From Anaerolineae bacterium (GTDB taxonomy: Bacteria; Chloroflexota; Anaerolineae; B4-G1; DUEL01): a stretch of 64,000 nucleotides of DNA. Every line of letters begins with the position of its first letter. The stretch's first letter is position 1. The translations under genes and the position numbers were made by a program. The notes below the pieces were generated by a model. The model saw only the letters and a program-made list of their open reading frames with translations, did no database searches and was not told where the DNA came from. The stretch lies in NCBI GenBank assembly GCA_049972045.1, contig JBMFKS010000002.1:11511-75510 (forward strand), written 5' to 3'. Positions 6,355 to 59,074 of the stretch are shown piece after piece.

Positions 6355-6370
6355 CAATCGGGCTCCCAGG

Positions 6371-6443
6371 TGGCGACGGAGGGATTCGAACCCCCAACCA
6401 AGGGCTTATGAGTCCCCTGCTCTACCTTTGAGCTACGTCGCCC
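6371..6443 (-). tRNA. tRNA-Met (anticodon CAT); elongator type with a 1G:72C pair (or tRNA-Ile2 if lysidinylated)
   Basis: The reverse complement folds as a cloverleaf. The acceptor is GGCGACG/CGTCGCC+A, the D-arm GCTC..GAGC, the anticodon loop CTCATAA, and the T-arm GGGGG-TTCGAAT-CCCTC. CCA is not encoded. Confidence 0.85.
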
Positions 6444-6478: not shown

Positions 6479-6691
6479 GCCCGCGTCTGAGGTTCGGACA
6501 TCCGTTGGGACACGGGTTCGGACTCGCTTTTTGCGTCGACCGGAAGGGGGCGAGATCTCGGCCCCGAGCCCCGAGGGGCCAGTAGGACAAGGCAGAGCCT
6601 TGTCCTTCCCCGCGAAAACGCCGGGCCTGGCTTGCCTATGTCGGCTTATCTCCCAAATAATTTTTTCAAAGTTCATTCCGTCCGGGCGATC

Positions 6692-14274: not shown

Positions 14275-15399
14275 TCAACCGGCTGTGCCCTTCGGCACCG
14301 ACGTCTTCTCCAGTTCGGCCGCCAGATGAGCCACTGCCCGCGCCAGAGGGGAGTCCGGGGCGCTCAGCGCCAGGGGTTTGCCCTGGGCTAACGCCCGTGC
14401 CTGGGACGGGTCAAAAGGAACGATCCCGGAGATGGGATGCTTAAGGACCCGCTGGAGGGCATCCACCGGTGGCATCGGCTCCGGCCCCGCCTGGTTCAGG
14501 ATCAGCCGGACCTTGAAAGCATAGGGCTTTAAGACCTGAAGAGTCCCCACAGTGGTCTGGAGCGTTGGGGGGTCGGCGGCCGTCACCAGGAGGATCGCAT
14601 CCGCGCGCTCCAGCACGGCCATCACTCCTTCTGTGAGCACCGCGGGAAGGTCCGCCACCACGTACAGGAAACTCTCCCTCAGCGCGGCCAGGACTGCCCG
14701 GATCATTTCCGGGGATAACCCTCCCCCCACGACGGGGACGAAAGGTGAAGCGAGCAGATGGACGCCGGAGGGATGGGTCAGAAGATAATTCCGGATGGTT
14801 GCTGAGCCGGGCCCAGGGGTCAGGAGGGCCAGAGCAGACCAGTTGGGGTCAGGCCGGAGCCCCAACTGAAGCGCGTCGTGCCCGGAAGAAGGGGAGAGGT
14901 CCACCAGGCAGACCTGATTCGGCGAGGAGCGGGCCAGGGTGATGGCCAGATTGACAGCCAGCGTGGTCGTTCCCACCCCTCCGCGCAGGCTCAATACAGC
15001 CATCGTCCCTCCCGCTGCGCGGCGGACCACCTTGCGGGTCAGCAGGCGGTTGACCCGCTCCAGGAGTTCCGCCATGGTGACCGGCTTGGCGATGTACTCG
15101 TCGGCCCCGGCTGCCAGGGCGGTCTCCCGGTCCACCGGCTGACCGCGGGCCGTGAGGATAATGATGGGGATCTGGGCAGTGGCCGGGTTTTGCCGTAACT
15201 GGCGACAGACCTCGTAGCCGTTCATCCCCGGCATCATCACATCTATGATGGCCAGGTCCGGTGGGTTCGCGCGGGCTTTTGCCAGACCGTCCTCCCCTTC
15301 GGCGCTCAGCATCACTTCATGCCCGCCCCGCTCCTCCAGCAGCATCCGGATCATCTGGAGCAGGTCGGCATTGTCGTCCACGACCAGAATACGGGCCAT
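14275..15399 (-). CDS. response-regulator receiver domain fused to a CpaE/TadZ-like (ParA/MinD superfamily) ATPase domain with a degenerate Walker A
   Basis: REC: 'ILVVDDNADLL...DLAIIDVMMPGMNGYEV...IIILTA...ADEYIAKP'. ATPase-like: 'LSLRGGVGTTTLAVNLA' (canonical KGGVGKTT has lost both lysines). The start is at 15399, with SD ggagg upstream. Confidence 0.8.
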   Translation of the reverse strand: MARILVVDDNADLLQMIRMLLEERGGHEVMLSAEGEDGLAKARANPPDLAIIDVMMPGMNGYEVCRQLRQNPATAQIPIIILTARGQPVDRETALAAGADEYIAKPVTMAELLERVNRLLTRKVVRRAAGGTMAVLSLRGGVGTTTLAVNLAITLARSSPNQVCLVDLSPSSGHDALQLGLRPDPNWSALALLTPGPGSATIRNYLLTHPSGVHLLASPFVPVVGGGLSPEMIRAVLAALRESFLYVVADLPAVLTEGVMAVLERADAILLVTAADPPTLQTTVGTLQVLKPYAFKVRLILNQAGPEPMPPVDALQRVLKHPISGIVPFDPSQARALAQGKPLALSAPDSPLARAVAHLAAELEKTSVPKGTAG

Positions 15400-15507
15400 G
15401 TCCGTCCTCCTCCCCCACAACGCTCATGGCGATATTATACCCCTAATTTGGCGATTTCACAATGGGCAAGGCGTGTCCCCACCGTGTCGGAGGAAGGGAA
15501 TAGTCCA

Positions 15508-15583
15508 CCAGTAGGGCAACTGCGAGCAGTTGCCCTACTGGAGGGCGCAGAGACCCACAAAAGGGCTGTTGACAAACCAGTAG
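15508..15583. repeat. copy A of a ~75-bp repeated element containing a perfect 16-bp-arm palindrome and a TTGACA box
   Basis: ccagtagggcaactgc-gag-gcagttgccctactgg followed by agggcgcagagacccacaaaagggctgttgacaaacc. It is ~90% identical to the reverse complement of 56803..56875. Confidence 0.8.
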
Positions 15584-15612
15584 TTGCGTTTTTTGCAGAG
15601 TTGTGCTACAAT
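15584..15612 (+). promoter_or_regulatory. candidate promoter (TTGCGT-N17-TACAAT) for the LysM/M23 peptidase gene
   Basis: ttgcgt at 15584-89 and tacaat at 15607-12. Confidence 0.45.
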
Positions 15613-15687
15613 CTACCACGCGGTTTTCCGTTCCCTGCGGGACGTTGAAAACGGAGCCGACTTTGGAAACGCTTGGGGAAACTGAAA

Positions 15688-15712
15688 GGAACGTTCCTGA
15701 GGGAAACGTTCC
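15688..15712 (+). promoter_or_regulatory. two adjacent palindromes GGAACGTTCC and GGAAACGTTCC in the 5' UTR; candidate operator
   Basis: A perfect 10-bp palindrome and a near-perfect 11-bp palindrome 14 bp apart. They lie downstream of the candidate -10 and upstream of the likely TTG start at 15738. Confidence 0.45.
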
Positions 15713-15737
15713 ACCGAAATCGCAGAACAGGGGCGGG

Positions 15738-16850
15738 TTGAACTCCGCCATCCACTGGCGGGATGAGGTCCTGCCCCGCCACTTGGCCCGTCTGGCGGTC
15801 TCCTGGTGGCAGTGGAGCAGTGACCGACAGGCGTTCTGGCCGTTGCTGAGCCGCACCTCGGCGCATCTCGCGCTGGTGATCGCGGCCTGTCTGGCCCTCC
15901 TGCTGAGCACCATCCGTATCCCCGTCTGGGCCGCCCGTTCGCTGACCCCCGCGGCAGACCTCTTCGCTTCCCAGAACAATATCAGTGCCACTCAGGCCAC
16001 ACCGGCCGGAATGACTGCCCGCAGGGGGCATGCTCTCAAGCCGGACCCCTGGGCTCCGATCGCCCTGCGGGCCGATCCCCACACGGAAATCCCCAAACGC
16101 CCGCGCCTGGGCGTGATCACCTACACAGTCCAGTTAGGGGATACCGTGCAGGCGATCGCAGCCCAGTTTGACCTGCAACCCACCACCATTATGTGGGCAA
16201 ACCCCGCCGTGGAGGATGCCCCAGACCTGCTGCGCATCGGGCAGGAACTGGTCATTCTGCCCGTGGACGGAGTGTACCACACCGTCAAAGAGGGCGAGAC
16301 GCTGGAATCCATCGCCAAAAAATACAAGGTGGAAGTGGAAGCGATCACTTCCTGCCCGTATAACTCCCTCCAGCCCCCCGATTTCGCCATTGAGCCGGGG
16401 ATGAAACTGATCATCCCCGGCGGTGAGAAGCCCTGGGTGCCGAAAGTGGTGACCAGTTACACTGGGCCCATCCCCGAAGGGGCCCGGGGGACCGGCCTGT
16501 TCCAGTGGCCGGTGCTGGGCTATATCACCCAGGGATACTGGTACGGCCACCGGGCCATAGACATCGGCGTCCCGGTGGGCACGGCGGTCCACGCGGCCGA
16601 CGGCGGCTTCGTCAGTTTTGCCGGATGGACCGATGTCGGCTACGGTTACCTGATCGTTATTGACCACGCCAACGGTTTCGCCACCTACTACGCTCACCTG
16701 AGCAACTTCTACGTGATGGCCGGGCAGAAAGTGGAACGGGGCCAGGTCATCGGCGCCACCGGCAACACCGGCTGGTCCACCGGCCCGCATCTCCACTTTG
16801 AGATCCGCTACCTCGGCGTACCCCAGAACCCCCGCGCGTATCTCCCGTAG
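15738..16850 (+). CDS. M23-family (LytM-type) metallopeptidase with two LysM domains and an N-terminal membrane anchor
   Basis: LysM x2 ('YTVQLGDTVQAIAAQF...', 'YHTVKEGETLESIAKKY'). M23: 'HRAIDIG..GTAVHAADGG...GYGYLIVIDHANGFATYYAHL...GATGNTGWSTGPHLHFEIR'. The longest ORF starts at 15603, but the TTG at 15738 (after GGGGCGGG) fits the promoter/UTR better. Confidence 0.85.
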   Translation: MNSAIHWRDEVLPRHLARLAVSWWQWSSDRQAFWPLLSRTSAHLALVIAACLALLLSTIRIPVWAARSLTPAADLFASQNNISATQATPAGMTARRGHALKPDPWAPIALRADPHTEIPKRPRLGVITYTVQLGDTVQAIAAQFDLQPTTIMWANPAVEDAPDLLRIGQELVILPVDGVYHTVKEGETLESIAKKYKVEVEAITSCPYNSLQPPDFAIEPGMKLIIPGGEKPWVPKVVTSYTGPIPEGARGTGLFQWPVLGYITQGYWYGHRAIDIGVPVGTAVHAADGGFVSFAGWTDVGYGYLIVIDHANGFATYYAHLSNFYVMAGQKVERGQVIGATGNTGWSTGPHLHFEIRYLGVPQNPRAYLP

Positions 16851-16866
16851 GGGAATCACAGGAGGA

Positions 16867-16910
16867 AGAGGGGGTTGGGGGCTCTGTGGCCCCTGACCCC
16901 CTCTTTTCTT
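16867..16910 (+). terminator. Rho-independent terminator after the M23 peptidase gene
   Basis: agagggggt..accccctct followed by tttctt. Confidence 0.7.
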
Positions 16911-16937
16911 GACGCGGCAGGCCTTATCGGGTAGAAT
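16909..16937 (+). promoter_or_regulatory. sigma70-type promoter of mtnP (TTGACG-N17-TAGAAT)
   Basis: ttgacg at 16909-14 and tagaat at 16932-37. Confidence 0.6.
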
Positions 16938-49153: not shown

Positions 49154-49387
49154 ATGGAGTTCAAGCCGTCCGTTCATAAAGACTTCCGTCATTTGCCCAG
49201 ATCGGGGGTTGAGCGCGCGCTGAGACGGATTGAGGAATTGCGGGAAAACCTTTTCCTCCAGGGGTGGAGAAATTGGATATAGGCTTCGTCTGGGCGATGA
49301 TCGCGTCGTGGATGAGGTGATACACGGGCAAGGCGAAACCCAGTCATATATGTTCGCCATCGCCTGGAGGTATACCGAGCGCTTTAA
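49154..49387 (+). pseudogene. RelE/ParE-family toxin pseudogene (at least two frameshifts) inserted between rpsC and rplP
   Basis: Frame A: MEFKPSVHKDFRHLPRSGVERALRRIEELRENLFLQG. Frame B: ..GGEIGYRLRLGDDRVVDEV. Frame C: ..NPVIYVRHRLEVYRAL*. Together these reproduce the RelE/ParE consensus (...L.G.L.G.YRLRVGDYRviYeV....v.ilrIgHRkdvY). Confidence 0.7.
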
Positions 49388-54980: not shown

Positions 54981-56300
54981 ATGATCCAGGCTGTCCGTGA
55001 TGCCCTGAGGCTTCCTGACCTGCGGCGGCGGTTATTCTACACCCTGCTGATTCTGGTCATCTTCCGCGCGGCCTCTCACGTGCCGGTGCCGGGCATTGAC
55101 CGGGAGGCCCTGCGCAGCCTGACCGGTGGAGCGGCCCAACTGGTCAACATTCTGGACCTGCTCTCCGGCGGCGCGGTGGCGGAGTACTCCGTGCTGGCCA
55201 ACGGGGTCTATCCGTACATCAACGCATCCATCATCATCCAGTTGCTGGTCCCGGTCATCCCGGCGCTGAAGCGGCTGGCGGAGGAGGAAGGGGAAGCCGG
55301 ACGGCGAAAACTGAACCAGTGGACGTACTACCTGACCATTCCCCTGGGGATGTTGCAGGCGTGGGGTCAGGCCCAGTTGTTCAACGCCGCGGCGGTGCGC
55401 CCGGTCCTGCCCAACTTTGGCTTTGATCAGCCCGCCCACGTCCTGCCTACCATCTCCGTACTGATCGCGATGACGGCGGGCACAATGTTCGCCATCTGGC
55501 TGGGTGAGTTAATCTCCGAGCAGGGCATCGGCAACGGCCTTTCGCTGATTATCTTTGGCGGCATCGTTGCCCGGACGCCGGCCAATGTGGCGCGGATTTA
55601 CACCACTGACGGGTTCCTGGGCATTCTCTTCTTTTTGATTATCACCGCGCTGGTGGTTTTCGTCATCGTCTACGTCCAGGAGGGGGAGCGGCGCATCCCA
55701 GTGCAATACGGCAAACGGGTGCGGGGCCGGCGGATGTACGGCGGCGGCAGCACCTACATCCCGCTGCGGGTCAATATGGCGGGGATGATCCCGCTCATCT
55801 TCGCTCAGTCCATTCTCACTTTCCCGGCAGTCATCGCCCAGTTCTTTGCCAATTCGTCCAACGCGAGCGTGGCGAGGGCGGCGGCAGACATTATGAATTT
55901 CTTCAGCGGGCACACAGTGGAGTGGTACACCACTCTCTTCTATGCGCTGCTCTACTTCGCCGCCGTGGTCGGCTTCACCTATTTCTACACCTTCGTGCTG
56001 GTGGAGCAACAGAATCTGCCGGAGAATCTGCAGAAGTATGGCGGGTTCATCCCGGGCATCCGTCCTGGCAAGCAGACAGCGGATTACATTAACGGGATTT
56101 ACAAGCGCATCACCCTGTTCGGGGCGCTGTTCCTGGGCGGTGTGGCGGTCCTGCCCTTCATCGTCCAGTTGGTGATGAACACCCGGGTCCTGCTCATCAC
56201 CTCGGCGGGGCTGCTCATCGTTGTCGGCGTCGTGGTGGATACCATGCGGCAACTGGAGGCCCAGTTGTTGATGCGGCACTATGAGGGGTTCATCCGGTGA
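54981..56300 (+). CDS. secY: preprotein translocase subunit SecY
   Basis: 10-TM SecY family. AAGGAG lies 5 nt before the ATG at 54981. Confidence 0.96.
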   Translation: MIQAVRDALRLPDLRRRLFYTLLILVIFRAASHVPVPGIDREALRSLTGGAAQLVNILDLLSGGAVAEYSVLANGVYPYINASIIIQLLVPVIPALKRLAEEEGEAGRRKLNQWTYYLTIPLGMLQAWGQAQLFNAAAVRPVLPNFGFDQPAHVLPTISVLIAMTAGTMFAIWLGELISEQGIGNGLSLIIFGGIVARTPANVARIYTTDGFLGILFFLIITALVVFVIVYVQEGERRIPVQYGKRVRGRRMYGGGSTYIPLRVNMAGMIPLIFAQSILTFPAVIAQFFANSSNASVARAAADIMNFFSGHTVEWYTTLFYALLYFAAVVGFTYFYTFVLVEQQNLPENLQKYGGFIPGIRPGKQTADYINGIYKRITLFGALFLGGVAVLPFIVQLVMNTRVLLITSAGLLIVVGVVVDTMRQLEAQLLMRHYEGFIR

Positions 56301-56305
56301 ACACC

Positions 56306-56629
56306 ATGCCGATTCCCATCCGGGAGATCGCCGAATTCTGTCAGCGCTGAAGGATTTGCGCATTGGCCCTCTTGGGCTCCGCACCGCGGGATGACTTTTC
56401 CCCCGATAGCGACTGGGATTTTCTGGTTGACTTTGAGCGGGATGCCGATTGGGGTCTCTTAGAACACGTCCAGATGCAACAGGAATTGCAAAGCCTTTTT
56501 CAGCGCGGGGTTGATCTGATTACCAAACGGGCCCTGCTCCGGAGTCCCAATCGGTTGCGGTGTCGGGAAATTCTGGGAACGGCCCGGGTCCTTTTCTCCA
56601 GACCTGAGGAGAGGAATGCGGCGGGATGA
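56306..56629 (+). pseudogene. MNT-type nucleotidyltransferase (antitoxin) gene with an in-frame TGA
   Basis: MPIPIREIAEFCQR-TGA(56348)-RICALALLGSAPRDDFSPDSDWDFLVDFE... reproduces the ..L.LFGS.ARGE...SD.DLLVEF nucleotidyltransferase motif across the stop codon. Confidence 0.65.
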
Positions 56630-56805
56630 GGTTACCCTGCTGGATATTGCCCGTGCAGCCGTCTCATAGCGTCTTTCGTCACTGGTTAGACGAAGGCGGA
56701 ATTCCTGGACGACGTGAAGACCCAATCGGCTGTGCTGTACCAGTTGCTGGTCATCGGAGAGGCCGTCAAGCAGCTTTCGGGGGCATTTCGGGCTCAGCAC
56801 AATGA
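56616..56805 (+). pseudogene. HepT/DUF86 (HEPN toxin) remnant: premature TAG, frameshift, and 3' truncation by repeat copy B
   Basis: MRRDEVTLLDIARAAVS* then, in the +1 frame, ..FLDDVKTQSAVLYQLLVIGEAVKQLSGAFRAQHNEVP* (compare the HepT '..IGEA.K.LS.E....hPEIPW'). The repeat starts at the conserved P|W. Confidence 0.6.
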
Positions 56806-56875
56806 GGTGCCCTAGTGGTTTGTCAACAGCACTTTTGTGGGTCTTTGCGCCCTCCAGTAGGGCAACTGTGAGCAG
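56803..56875. repeat. copy B (inverted orientation) of the ~75-bp palindrome-containing repeat
   Basis: Its reverse complement is cgtaggcaactgctcacagttgccctactggagggcgcaaagacccacaaaagtgctgttgacaaaccactagg, ~90% identical to 15508..15583. Confidence 0.8.
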
Positions 56876-57006
56876 TTGCCTACGCCTTGTGGCCTGCATG
56901 GGCCCCTGGCCGCGTCAGCAATTCGGACCCATAAGTATAAACTTGACTAACCACTCGTCGCTGATTGCGGGGAGGATAGAACCGCTGCTTCCTTCGGAGT
57001 AATCTG

Positions 57007-57669
57007 ATGGGCTGCCGGATCGTACTGTTGGGAATGCCTGGAGCGGGCAAGGGAACCCAGGCGGAGCAACTGGCTCAGGCGCTGGGTGTCCCGCATGTGG
57101 CCAGTGGAGACCTGTTCCGGGAGCACCTGGATCAGGGGACGGAACTGGGCCGCCAGGCGCGGGCCTATATGGAGCGGGGCGACCTGGTGCCCGATGAGGT
57201 GACCATCGGCATGGTCGCCGAGCGGATCGCCCGTCCGGATTGCACTGGCGGCTTCATCCTGGACGGCTTCCCGCGCACCGTCGCGCAGGCGGAGGCGCTG
57301 GAGCGGCTCCTGCGGGGGAACGGGACCGCGCTGGATATGGTCGCGTTCATCCGGGTGCGGGAAGAAGTGGCCCTGGCCCGCCTGGCGGGCCGCTGGACCT
57401 GCCGGAACTGCGGGGCCGTCTACCACACCCTGTTTCATCCGCCGAAGCAGGCGGGGGTATGCGACGCCTGCGGGGGCGAACTCTATCAGCGTCCCGACGA
57501 GACGGAGGAAGCCCACCGCCGCCGCCTGAAGGTCTACCAGGAGCAAACGGCGCCGCTGGTGGACTACTACCGCCGGGCCGGCCTGCTGGTGGAAATAGAC
57601 GGCGAGCAGTCCATTGAAGACGTCCAGGCCGACTTGCGGACGGCGGTGGAGGTGGCCTGCGGCCGATGA
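57007..57669 (+). CDS. adk: adenylate kinase (Zn-lid type)
   Basis: 'ILLGMPGAGKGTQA'; LID cysteines CRNC...CDAC. Confidence 0.96.
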   Translation: MGCRIVLLGMPGAGKGTQAEQLAQALGVPHVASGDLFREHLDQGTELGRQARAYMERGDLVPDEVTIGMVAERIARPDCTGGFILDGFPRTVAQAEALERLLRGNGTALDMVAFIRVREEVALARLAGRWTCRNCGAVYHTLFHPPKQAGVCDACGGELYQRPDETEEAHRRRLKVYQEQTAPLVDYYRRAGLLVEIDGEQSIEDVQADLRTAVEVACGR

Positions 57670-58451: not shown

Positions 58452-58682
<231 letters not shown>

Positions 58683-58690
58683 TATAGTGA

Positions 58691-59074
58691 ATGGATCCGT
58701 CTCCCTGCTTTAAAGTTGACGAGAATTTGCCCGTTGAGGTGGCAGAATATCTGCAGCAAGCGGGGTATGATGCCAGGACTGTATGGGAAGAGGGAGTTAG
58801 CGGGGTATCGGATGCCGTCATCGCCGACATCTGCCTTAGGGAAAAGCGGGTGCTTCTGACTTTGGATACCGATTTCGCTGATATTCGCAGGTACCCGTCT
58901 GAAGATTATCCCGGCTTGGTGGTTCTGCGATTGAGGAGGCAAGAAAAGCCTTACGTGTTGAGGGTGGTGTCTCGTTTGCTTCCTATGTTCAGGGTAGAAC
59001 CTGTTAAGGGGCGGCTTTGGGTTGTAGAAGAAGAACGCGTCAGGATCCAGGATCAGAGCAGGAGGATAAAGTGA
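58691..59074 (+). CDS. DUF5615-family PIN-like (Mut7-C-like) protein (putative toxin)
   Basis: '[25 protein letters not shown]...[25 protein letters not shown]...GLVVLRL'. Its stop overlaps the rpmJ GTG. Confidence 0.75.

Follow-up and report, generated by a model that had tools for sequence, protein, structure and literature searches.

The 64-kb stretch of DNA analysed here (the window) holds two short look-alike sequences in inverted orientation, one in the spacer between a LysM/M23 gene and a REC-CpaE-like gene (copy A), and the other beside a remnant of a HepT toxin gene (copy B). What kind of genetic unit do they represent? An earlier note on this DNA described them as a ~75-bp palindrome-bearing element and offered three readings: a MITE-like mobile element, a portable promoter or operator, or a small structured RNA. 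The similarity is genuine and close to the ~90% identity estimated there, as blastn aligned window positions 15583-15515 with 56812-56880 at 91.3% identity over 69 nt. Furthermore, two long sub-patterns, a 23-mer (CAGTTGCCCTACTGGAGGGCGCA) and a 27-mer (GACCCACAAAAGKGCTGTTGACAAACC), were each found exactly twice in the window and in none of 100 shuffles. No further copies beyond A and B were detected within the 64 kb.

The window copies belong to a longer element

The ~75-bp unit turned out to be only the left arm and hairpin of a longer, non-coding element that measures 142–176 bp (~145–175 bp) in the full copies. Copy B (56812–56955, plus strand; positions 1–160 of the nhmmer profile) is a complete element of 144 bp composed of left arm, hairpin and right arm. 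It runs on to 56955, and the stretch shared with copy A starts at 56812, not at 56803 as first proposed. Copy A (15502–15583, minus strand; profile positions 1–100) consists of 82 nt comprising the left arm and central hairpin, and its right arm is missing. The minus strand of copy A reads CTAC-TGGTTTGTCAAC...GTAGGGCAACTG-CTCG-CAGTTGCCCTAC-TGGTGG.

The palindrome of copy A, which is assigned to neither strand, occupies 15508–15541 (16+2+16 = 34 nt) with a core GTAG...CTAC hairpin at 15511–15538. It is perfect, as had been claimed, and reads CCAGTAGGGCAACTGC-GA-GCAGTTGCCCTACTGG, although the string originally written for it had one G too many. In copy B, the central GTAG hairpin (56857–56883, likewise unstranded) is GTAGGGCAACTG-TGAG-CAGTTGCC-TAC. 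One nucleotide is deleted in its 3′ arm, and pairing is limited to GTAGGGCAACTG/CAGTTGCC-TAC, leaving a 12/11-nt stem. The spurious peptides attributed to the element were located in three ORFs, 15319–15648 (+), 15443–15991 (−) and 56459–56899 (−).

A dispersed repeat family in one uncultured species

Further copies were retrieved by using the six-frame peptides of the element as queries in a protein search, followed by blastn and the nhmmer profile on the fetched contigs. The protein search returned four called proteins from Anaerolineae MAGs (P0001–P0004), the tails or middles of which are translated element. Including the window pair, the family comprises eight loci (A–H) plus fragments, all in one species-level MAG group, and the host is one uncultured Anaerolineae/Thermoflexales-like (Chloroflexota) species. 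Copies C (L010 10518–10659) and F (L023 4189–4364) are complete, copy E (L019 3930–4034) consists of the hairpin and right arm, and copy H (L016 19025–19162) is decayed at both ends. Copy D (L016 10362–10522) lies in frame inside an MNT/HEPN-like ORF, and copy G (L016 12637–12801) in the spacer before a Fer4 gene. The other contexts are the secY-adk gap, an hdr-like cluster, a response regulator/kinase spacer, the tail of a NapC gene, and the inside of a hypothetical ORF.

In blastn alignments, copy A is 92.7% identical to copy C over 82 nt, and copy B is 89.6% identical to copy C in L010 over 144 nt. Copy B is identical in contigs L001, L042 and L043. One MAG, GCA_049700735.1, alone carries copies B, D, G, E and F. 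Contigs L002, L040, L045 and L046 begin or stop inside the element, and coordinate arithmetic places the end of L018 within copy H; such breaks in short-read contigs are expected of a multi-copy repeat. A divergent subfamily in L019 has the right terminus AAACTTGACAAACCACTAC in common with the element. As a rough extrapolation and not a count, two copies per 64-kb window would correspond to ~100 copies per genome. An apparent deletion beside copy G in L017 proved to be a scaffold gap of Ns.

We found no full element in ~290 kb from relatives. A scan of a genome collection that does not include the source species, made with the pattern GCCCTACTGGAGGGCGCA, which misses copy C by one base, gave seven single matches in unrelated taxa that we take as chance. 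With CCTCCAGTAGGGCAACTG, a scan of JGI metagenomes returned three chance matches and a scan of viral contigs returned zero. Plasmid records searched by blastn contained zero matches to the element.

The element has sharp ends and imperfect terminal inverted repeats

Read in the direction of the flanking genes, the element begins with (C)TA(C/G), continues with TGGTTTGTCAAC-AGCACTTTTGTGGGTCTTTGCGCCC, an optional 18-nt module (ACAATCTCGGCAATTCGG, present in copies D, G, H and F) and the hairpin, and closes with the right arm, TGGCCTGCATGGGCCCCTGGCCGCGTCGGCCATTCGGACCCATAAGTATAAACTTGACT(A/G)ACCA then CTAC. The end of this arm is GTTGACT(A/G)ACCA. All copies contain the central palindrome with its 12-bp stem, GTAGGGCAACTG-N4-CAGTTGCCCTAC. 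On the forward strand, two of three reading frames run open through the entire element; on the reverse strand, each of the three contains stops. The ORFs called over the element are solely read-through tails of neighboring genes.

Similarity between copies stops at common limits. On the left, the limit is (C)TA(C/G)TGGTTTGTCA in copies A, B, C, D, G and F; on the right, it is TTGACT(A/G)ACCACTA(C/T) in copies C, D, G, F and E, and ...ACCACT in copy B. The two ends form imperfect terminal inverted repeats (TGGTTTGTCAAC... / ...GTTGACTAACCA). In copy B, the left repeat arm (56814–56843) pairs with the right repeat arm (56926–56955), which ends ...GTATAAACTTGACTAACCACT, over 30 nt at 70% complementarity, neither arm being assigned a strand. 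The 15-mer at the core of the left arm, TAGTGGTTTGTCAAC, matches the reverse complement of the right end of copy B. The core of the repeats is TGGTT(T/A)GTCAA, TAGTGGTTTGTCAA matches GTAGTGGTTAGTCAA, and the repeats are short and imperfect throughout.

Outside these repeats, CTAC usually stands on both sides of the element. Copies C, G and F are flanked by CTAC...CTAC, and TA...TA also flanks copies A and D; the complete flanks do not match in copy B (CTAG...CTCG) or copy D (ATAG...CTAC). CTAC in this position forms a direct repeat around the inverted repeats, an arrangement like that left by target-site duplication where CTAC or TA is the preferred target. The duplication is ambiguous, because the flanks are nearly constant and could belong to the element itself.

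Two relatives lack copy A at the orthologous locus

Two promoter-like sites lie outside copy A in its spacer. Directly beyond the element on the plus strand is the candidate promoter of the LysM/M23 gene (15584–15612, TTGCGT-17-TACAAT), which was read from the sequence and is missed by the consensus scan because its −35 hexamer matches at 3/6 positions. The REC-CpaE promoter-like site is on the minus strand (15434–15462, TTGTGA-17-TATAAT) and is conserved in L034, L035, L037 and L041. In L034, the LysM/M23 site is kept as TTGCGC-17-TACAAT without the element. Presence/absence variation, which the earlier note had proposed to look for at orthologous loci, was observed at this locus. L034 and L041, in which the REC-CpaE protein is 92% and 93% identical to that of the window, respectively, retain the two genes together with their native promoter-like sites (TTGCGy-17-TACAAT and TTGTGA-17-TATAAT) and lack copy A, which is present in L039 and L040. 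The site of copy A is taken by 18 nt in L034 and by ~170 nt of unrelated DNA in L041; owing to this hypervariability of the spacer, the exact insertion point cannot be read.

Two other features of this region are worth recording. At the copy A site, L041 (~1590–1680) carries the 7-nt tandem repeats GTATCGC / GAATCGC / AGATCGC, followed by a GGCGGCGAAGCCCGCCGC hairpin. In the window, the leader of the LysM/M23 gene (15688–15712, plus strand) contains a palindrome with a 10-bp stem, GGAACGTTCC TGAGG GAAACGTTCC, which is conserved in L034 despite differing nearby bases. This palindrome may be a regulatory site for the LysM/M23 gene.

The element as promoter or cis-acting RNA

The left terminus of copy A (CTAC plus TGGTTTGTCAAC; 15568–15583, minus strand) holds TTGACA on the plus strand at 15569–15574, and the earlier note took this for a −35 hexamer. 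A perfect TTGACA is indeed present in copies A and B, but its role as a −35 hexamer did not survive closer inspection. TTGACA is matched by a mirrored TTGACT at the right end and thus belongs to the inverted repeat; neither copy A nor copy B has a −10 hexamer at 16–18 nt; and TTGACA is unconserved, copy C reading GGTGACA. In copies B, C, D, G and F, TTGACA faces backwards into the upstream gene. Promoter and terminator scans called nothing at the element in either window copy, and at locus A the native promoters are located beyond the element and are conserved in relatives that lack it. That the element acts as a portable promoter is accordingly hard to credit, and the operator variant of the proposal fares no better on these observations. 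We also considered outward hybrid promoters built from the terminal TTGACA/TTGACT and rejected them on reading the sequence, as copies A, B, C and G have no −10 hexamer at the right distance. A different functional reading is that of a host-selected cis-acting element, either a protein-binding or operator site, or a transcribed RNA hairpin with a role in stabilizing, processing or insulating operon mRNAs. Wherever orientation can be read, the copies run in the direction of the flanking genes, and several are located 20–100 nt upstream of a start codon in strings of same-direction genes. The predicted fold is very stable (z-scores of about −3.6 to −7.7), and in L041 a solo GTAG hairpin occupies the position of the terminator-like hairpin seen in the window and in L034. 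However, the orientation count is small and biased by ascertainment, since a protein-based search favors co-oriented copies when two forward frames are open and the three reverse frames contain stops. Moreover, both strands fold about equally, no U-tract follows the element hairpin, and no terminator or promoter is called. None of the 46 predicted pairs shows compensatory change, the covariation term is positive, and Rfam 15 gave a single chance-level match (E = 5.8). These results do not favor the structured RNA suggested earlier. Copies also reside inside decayed ORFs, and close relatives without copy A keep both promoters. We therefore regard a selected cis-acting function as quite improbable.

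Copies B and D replace segments of toxin-type genes

The HepT remnant adjoining copy B (56690–56812, plus strand) is of interest here only as context; it matches the Pfam HepT-like family with E = 8.4e-6 at profile positions 16–48 of 120. Consistent with the initial description, copy B abuts this remnant exactly, and the frame ...AQHNEVP stops at a TAG made by the junction (CC|CTAGTGG). The accompanying suggestion of an insertion into the HepT gene is nevertheless too simple, because the missing C-terminal half of HepT was not found downstream of copy B, which points to replacement, or to insertion plus deletion. The remnant carries an independent frameshift besides copy B. Among relatives with identical S13, no empty site for copy B was found: between secY and adk they contain a different MNT/HepT allele, other cassettes or nothing, and homology resumes at the adk start codon. 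All same-species contigs have an identical copy B.

Copy D was considered as a clean insertion and rejected, because comparison with P0002 homologues revealed that the element stands in place of ~70 residues of the HEPN-like core. Empty sites came to light for none of the full-length copies; copies B and D were looked at, and both replace gene segments. Overall, nucleotidyltransferase or HEPN-type toxin genes are hit at 3/8 loci.

The GTAG hairpin is a separable module

In every copy the hairpin opens with GTAG, which is mirrored by CTAC inside the stem, and each end of the element, like each foot of the hairpin, carries CTAC or GTAG. The left boundary of half-copy E is GTAG, and half-copy A ends 6 nt past the 3′ CTAC of the hairpin. 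More distant relatives contain the hairpin alone, without arms, in the form GTAGGACAACTG-N4-CAGTTGTCCTAC, which differs from the element hairpin by a compensatory G>A / C>T change. Such solo hairpins occur in the S3-L16 spacer of L024, L032 and L033, at L037 18170, L016 8890 and L023 5010, and at L041 276–310, amounting to ~7 per ~0.5 Mb of fetched DNA. Among copies, the loops form reverse-complement pairs (CTCG/CGAG and TGAG/CTCA). The loop of copy A (15522–15525) is CTCG in the window vs TGAG in L039, the two sequences being otherwise identical over ~340 nt aligned. These differences suggest loop flipping or gene conversion between copies.

The solo palindrome of L041 (GTAGGACAACTG-CTCG-CAGTTCTCCTAC) is situated downstream of the LysM/M23 gene, and the same place in the window (16870–16912) and in L034 is occupied by a G+C-rich hairpin followed by a T-run, resembling a terminator. 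A related GTAG palindrome with another inner stem, CCAGTAGGACAAGGC-AGA-GCCTTGTCCTTC, is present at window positions 6582–6608, ~140 nt from a tRNA-Met gene (6369–6442), and may be a member of a second hairpin subfamily.

A probable MITE-like element with a nested REP-like palindrome

The MITE-like reading gains support from at least eight loci in unrelated contexts, sharp common ends, terminal inverted repeats, the absence of copy A from the orthologous locus in two relatives, and assemblies that break inside the element. We estimate a probability of about 60% that the sequences form a lineage-specific family of small, non-coding, MITE-like dispersed repeats carrying a nested REP-like GTAG palindrome. 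Mobility driven by a transposase, the type of that enzyme and the meaning of the CTAC flanks are what we infer beyond these observations. A transposase encoded elsewhere in the genome would bind the inverted ends and insert the element, moved or copied, into spacers between genes and into dispensable genes; in the fetched DNA, we saw no transposase gene flanked by such ends. Subsequent decay would have produced the half-copies A (left arm and hairpin) and E (hairpin and right arm), as well as the adjacent deletions in HepT at copy B and in the HEPN-like gene at copy D. The central palindrome would be a separable REP-like module that also stands solo in the wider lineage. The element would then be an ordinary kind of selfish element, with no demonstrated host function.

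The main rival is that a tyrosine HUH transposase (RAYT or TIRYT) moves the element as a REP-type repeat, and not as a DDE-type MITE, since GTAG palindromes are a hallmark of REPs, which are thought to be RAYT-moved. In REPs, GTAG serves as both tag and cleavage motif. GTAG REPs have been reported in Chloroflexi, and RAYT-like genes flanked by long inverted repeats, as well as moderately abundant families of these repeats, have been described (PMC3733652). An enzyme of this kind would recognize, as single-stranded DNA, the hairpin with its GTAG tag and cleave at GTAG/CTAC, and the arms would be passengers joined at these tetranucleotides. Such a mechanism fits the GTAG start of the hairpin in every copy, the solo hairpins of arm-less relatives with their compensatory changes, the CTAC/GTAG at the element ends and hairpin feet, and the boundary of half-copy E on GTAG. 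It fits less well with a GTAG that is inside the stem and mirrored by CTAC, as classical REPs carry the tag at one end only. The clear terminal inverted repeats of 13–30 nt also speak against it, such repeats not being a feature of IS200/IS605-type ends. Moreover, the similarity between copies A and C extends 6 nt past the hairpin CTAC, making the module boundary inexact, and no RAYT-like ORF was detected in the window or fetched loci (<0.6 Mb) by the weak test of tblastn with an approximate query and an HUH motif scan. On balance, we consider the HUH mechanism possible though unlikely. Clearly unlikely, in our assessment, is a new composite REP type in Chloroflexota, whose modular elements would be put together and moved by a RAYT/TIRYT-like enzyme that cuts and joins single-stranded DNA at GTAG. 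In its favor, GTAG/CTAC marks the ends and hairpin feet and recurs near half-copy boundaries, and the loop flips between copies, even in near-identical strains. In addition, hairpins or elements land in or replace other hairpins (the L041 terminator) and nucleotidyltransferase/HEPN-type toxin genes (3/8 loci).

The preferred MITE-like reading is consistent with what is known of bacterial MITEs such as Correia/NEMIS of Neisseria, Nezha of cyanobacteria, ERIC and RUP. These are likewise 70–300 bp long and non-coding, with terminal inverted repeats, strong hairpin folding, many dispersed copies beside or inside genes, variable presence among related genomes, and flanking direct repeats that contain TA. 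The element differs from them in having no sequence similarity to Correia/NEMIS, Nezha, ERIC or RUP, and in its short imperfect inverted repeats, nearly constant CTAC flanks and nested GTAG palindrome. With the GTAG REPs, BIMEs and REPINs associated with RAYT (PMC3733652, PMC2817692), it shares a G+C-rich central palindrome of 28 nt starting with GTAG, which is found solo in intergenic spacers of relatives, sometimes directly after a stop codon, and a mosaic, modular construction. Unlike these repeats, it bears the tag on both strands, its hairpin sits between arms ending in inverted repeats, and no RAYT gene was found. Rickettsia palindromic elements (RPE) are similar in that copies occur inside called ORFs, as copy D does in frame, and two of the three forward frames of the element are open. 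However, the genes interrupted here are decayed and toxin-type with deleted segments, and not functional proteins with an extra peptide, and RPE carry a CGTC tag vs GTAG in the element (PMC3733652).

The practical weight of the element lies mostly in annotation and assembly: it gives rise to spurious ORFs and fused gene calls, exemplified by a 146-aa ORF over copy B and by P0001–P0004, and it makes short-read contigs of this lineage break at predictable places. The regulation of the neighboring genes at locus A is to be read as before; the LysM/M23 and REC-CpaE promoters are native and outside the element. The small-repeat family is an undescribed one, from an uncultured Chloroflexota lineage in which toxin-antitoxin insertions crowd the conserved operons. 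It is also a small lead on mobilization in Chloroflexota, in that it lets one ask if a single machinery mobilizes both GTAG palindromes and inverted-repeat elements.

Variable spacers in conserved operons

The S3-L16 spacer of the window (49154–49340) contains what appears by eye to be a frameshifted RelE/ParE-type toxin remnant (...GYRLRLGDDRVV...), short pieces of which gave no match in Pfam; in relatives, a solo GTAG hairpin takes its place. Within the ribosomal-protein operon, the secY-adk gap (window 56300–57007) varies widely among relatives with identical S13. It is empty in L024, holds an intact MNT+HepT pair ending 3 nt before adk in L029 and L033, two MNT genes and one HepT gene in L030, and an MNT gene with an AAA_15 ATPase/DUF3226 pair in L025, L027, L028 and L031. 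The MNT/HepT allele of the window differs from those of the relatives. Small toxin-antitoxin-type genes are also wedged between housekeeping genes, both within the ribosomal operons and within an hdr-like redox cluster (window 58455–59070; L010 and L024–L033), and belong to the families DUF433/DUF5615, DUF2283, DUF4258, DUF4160/DUF2442, PemK, BrnT/CopG and PIN. The lineage seems unusually tolerant of toxin-antitoxin insertions in conserved operons.
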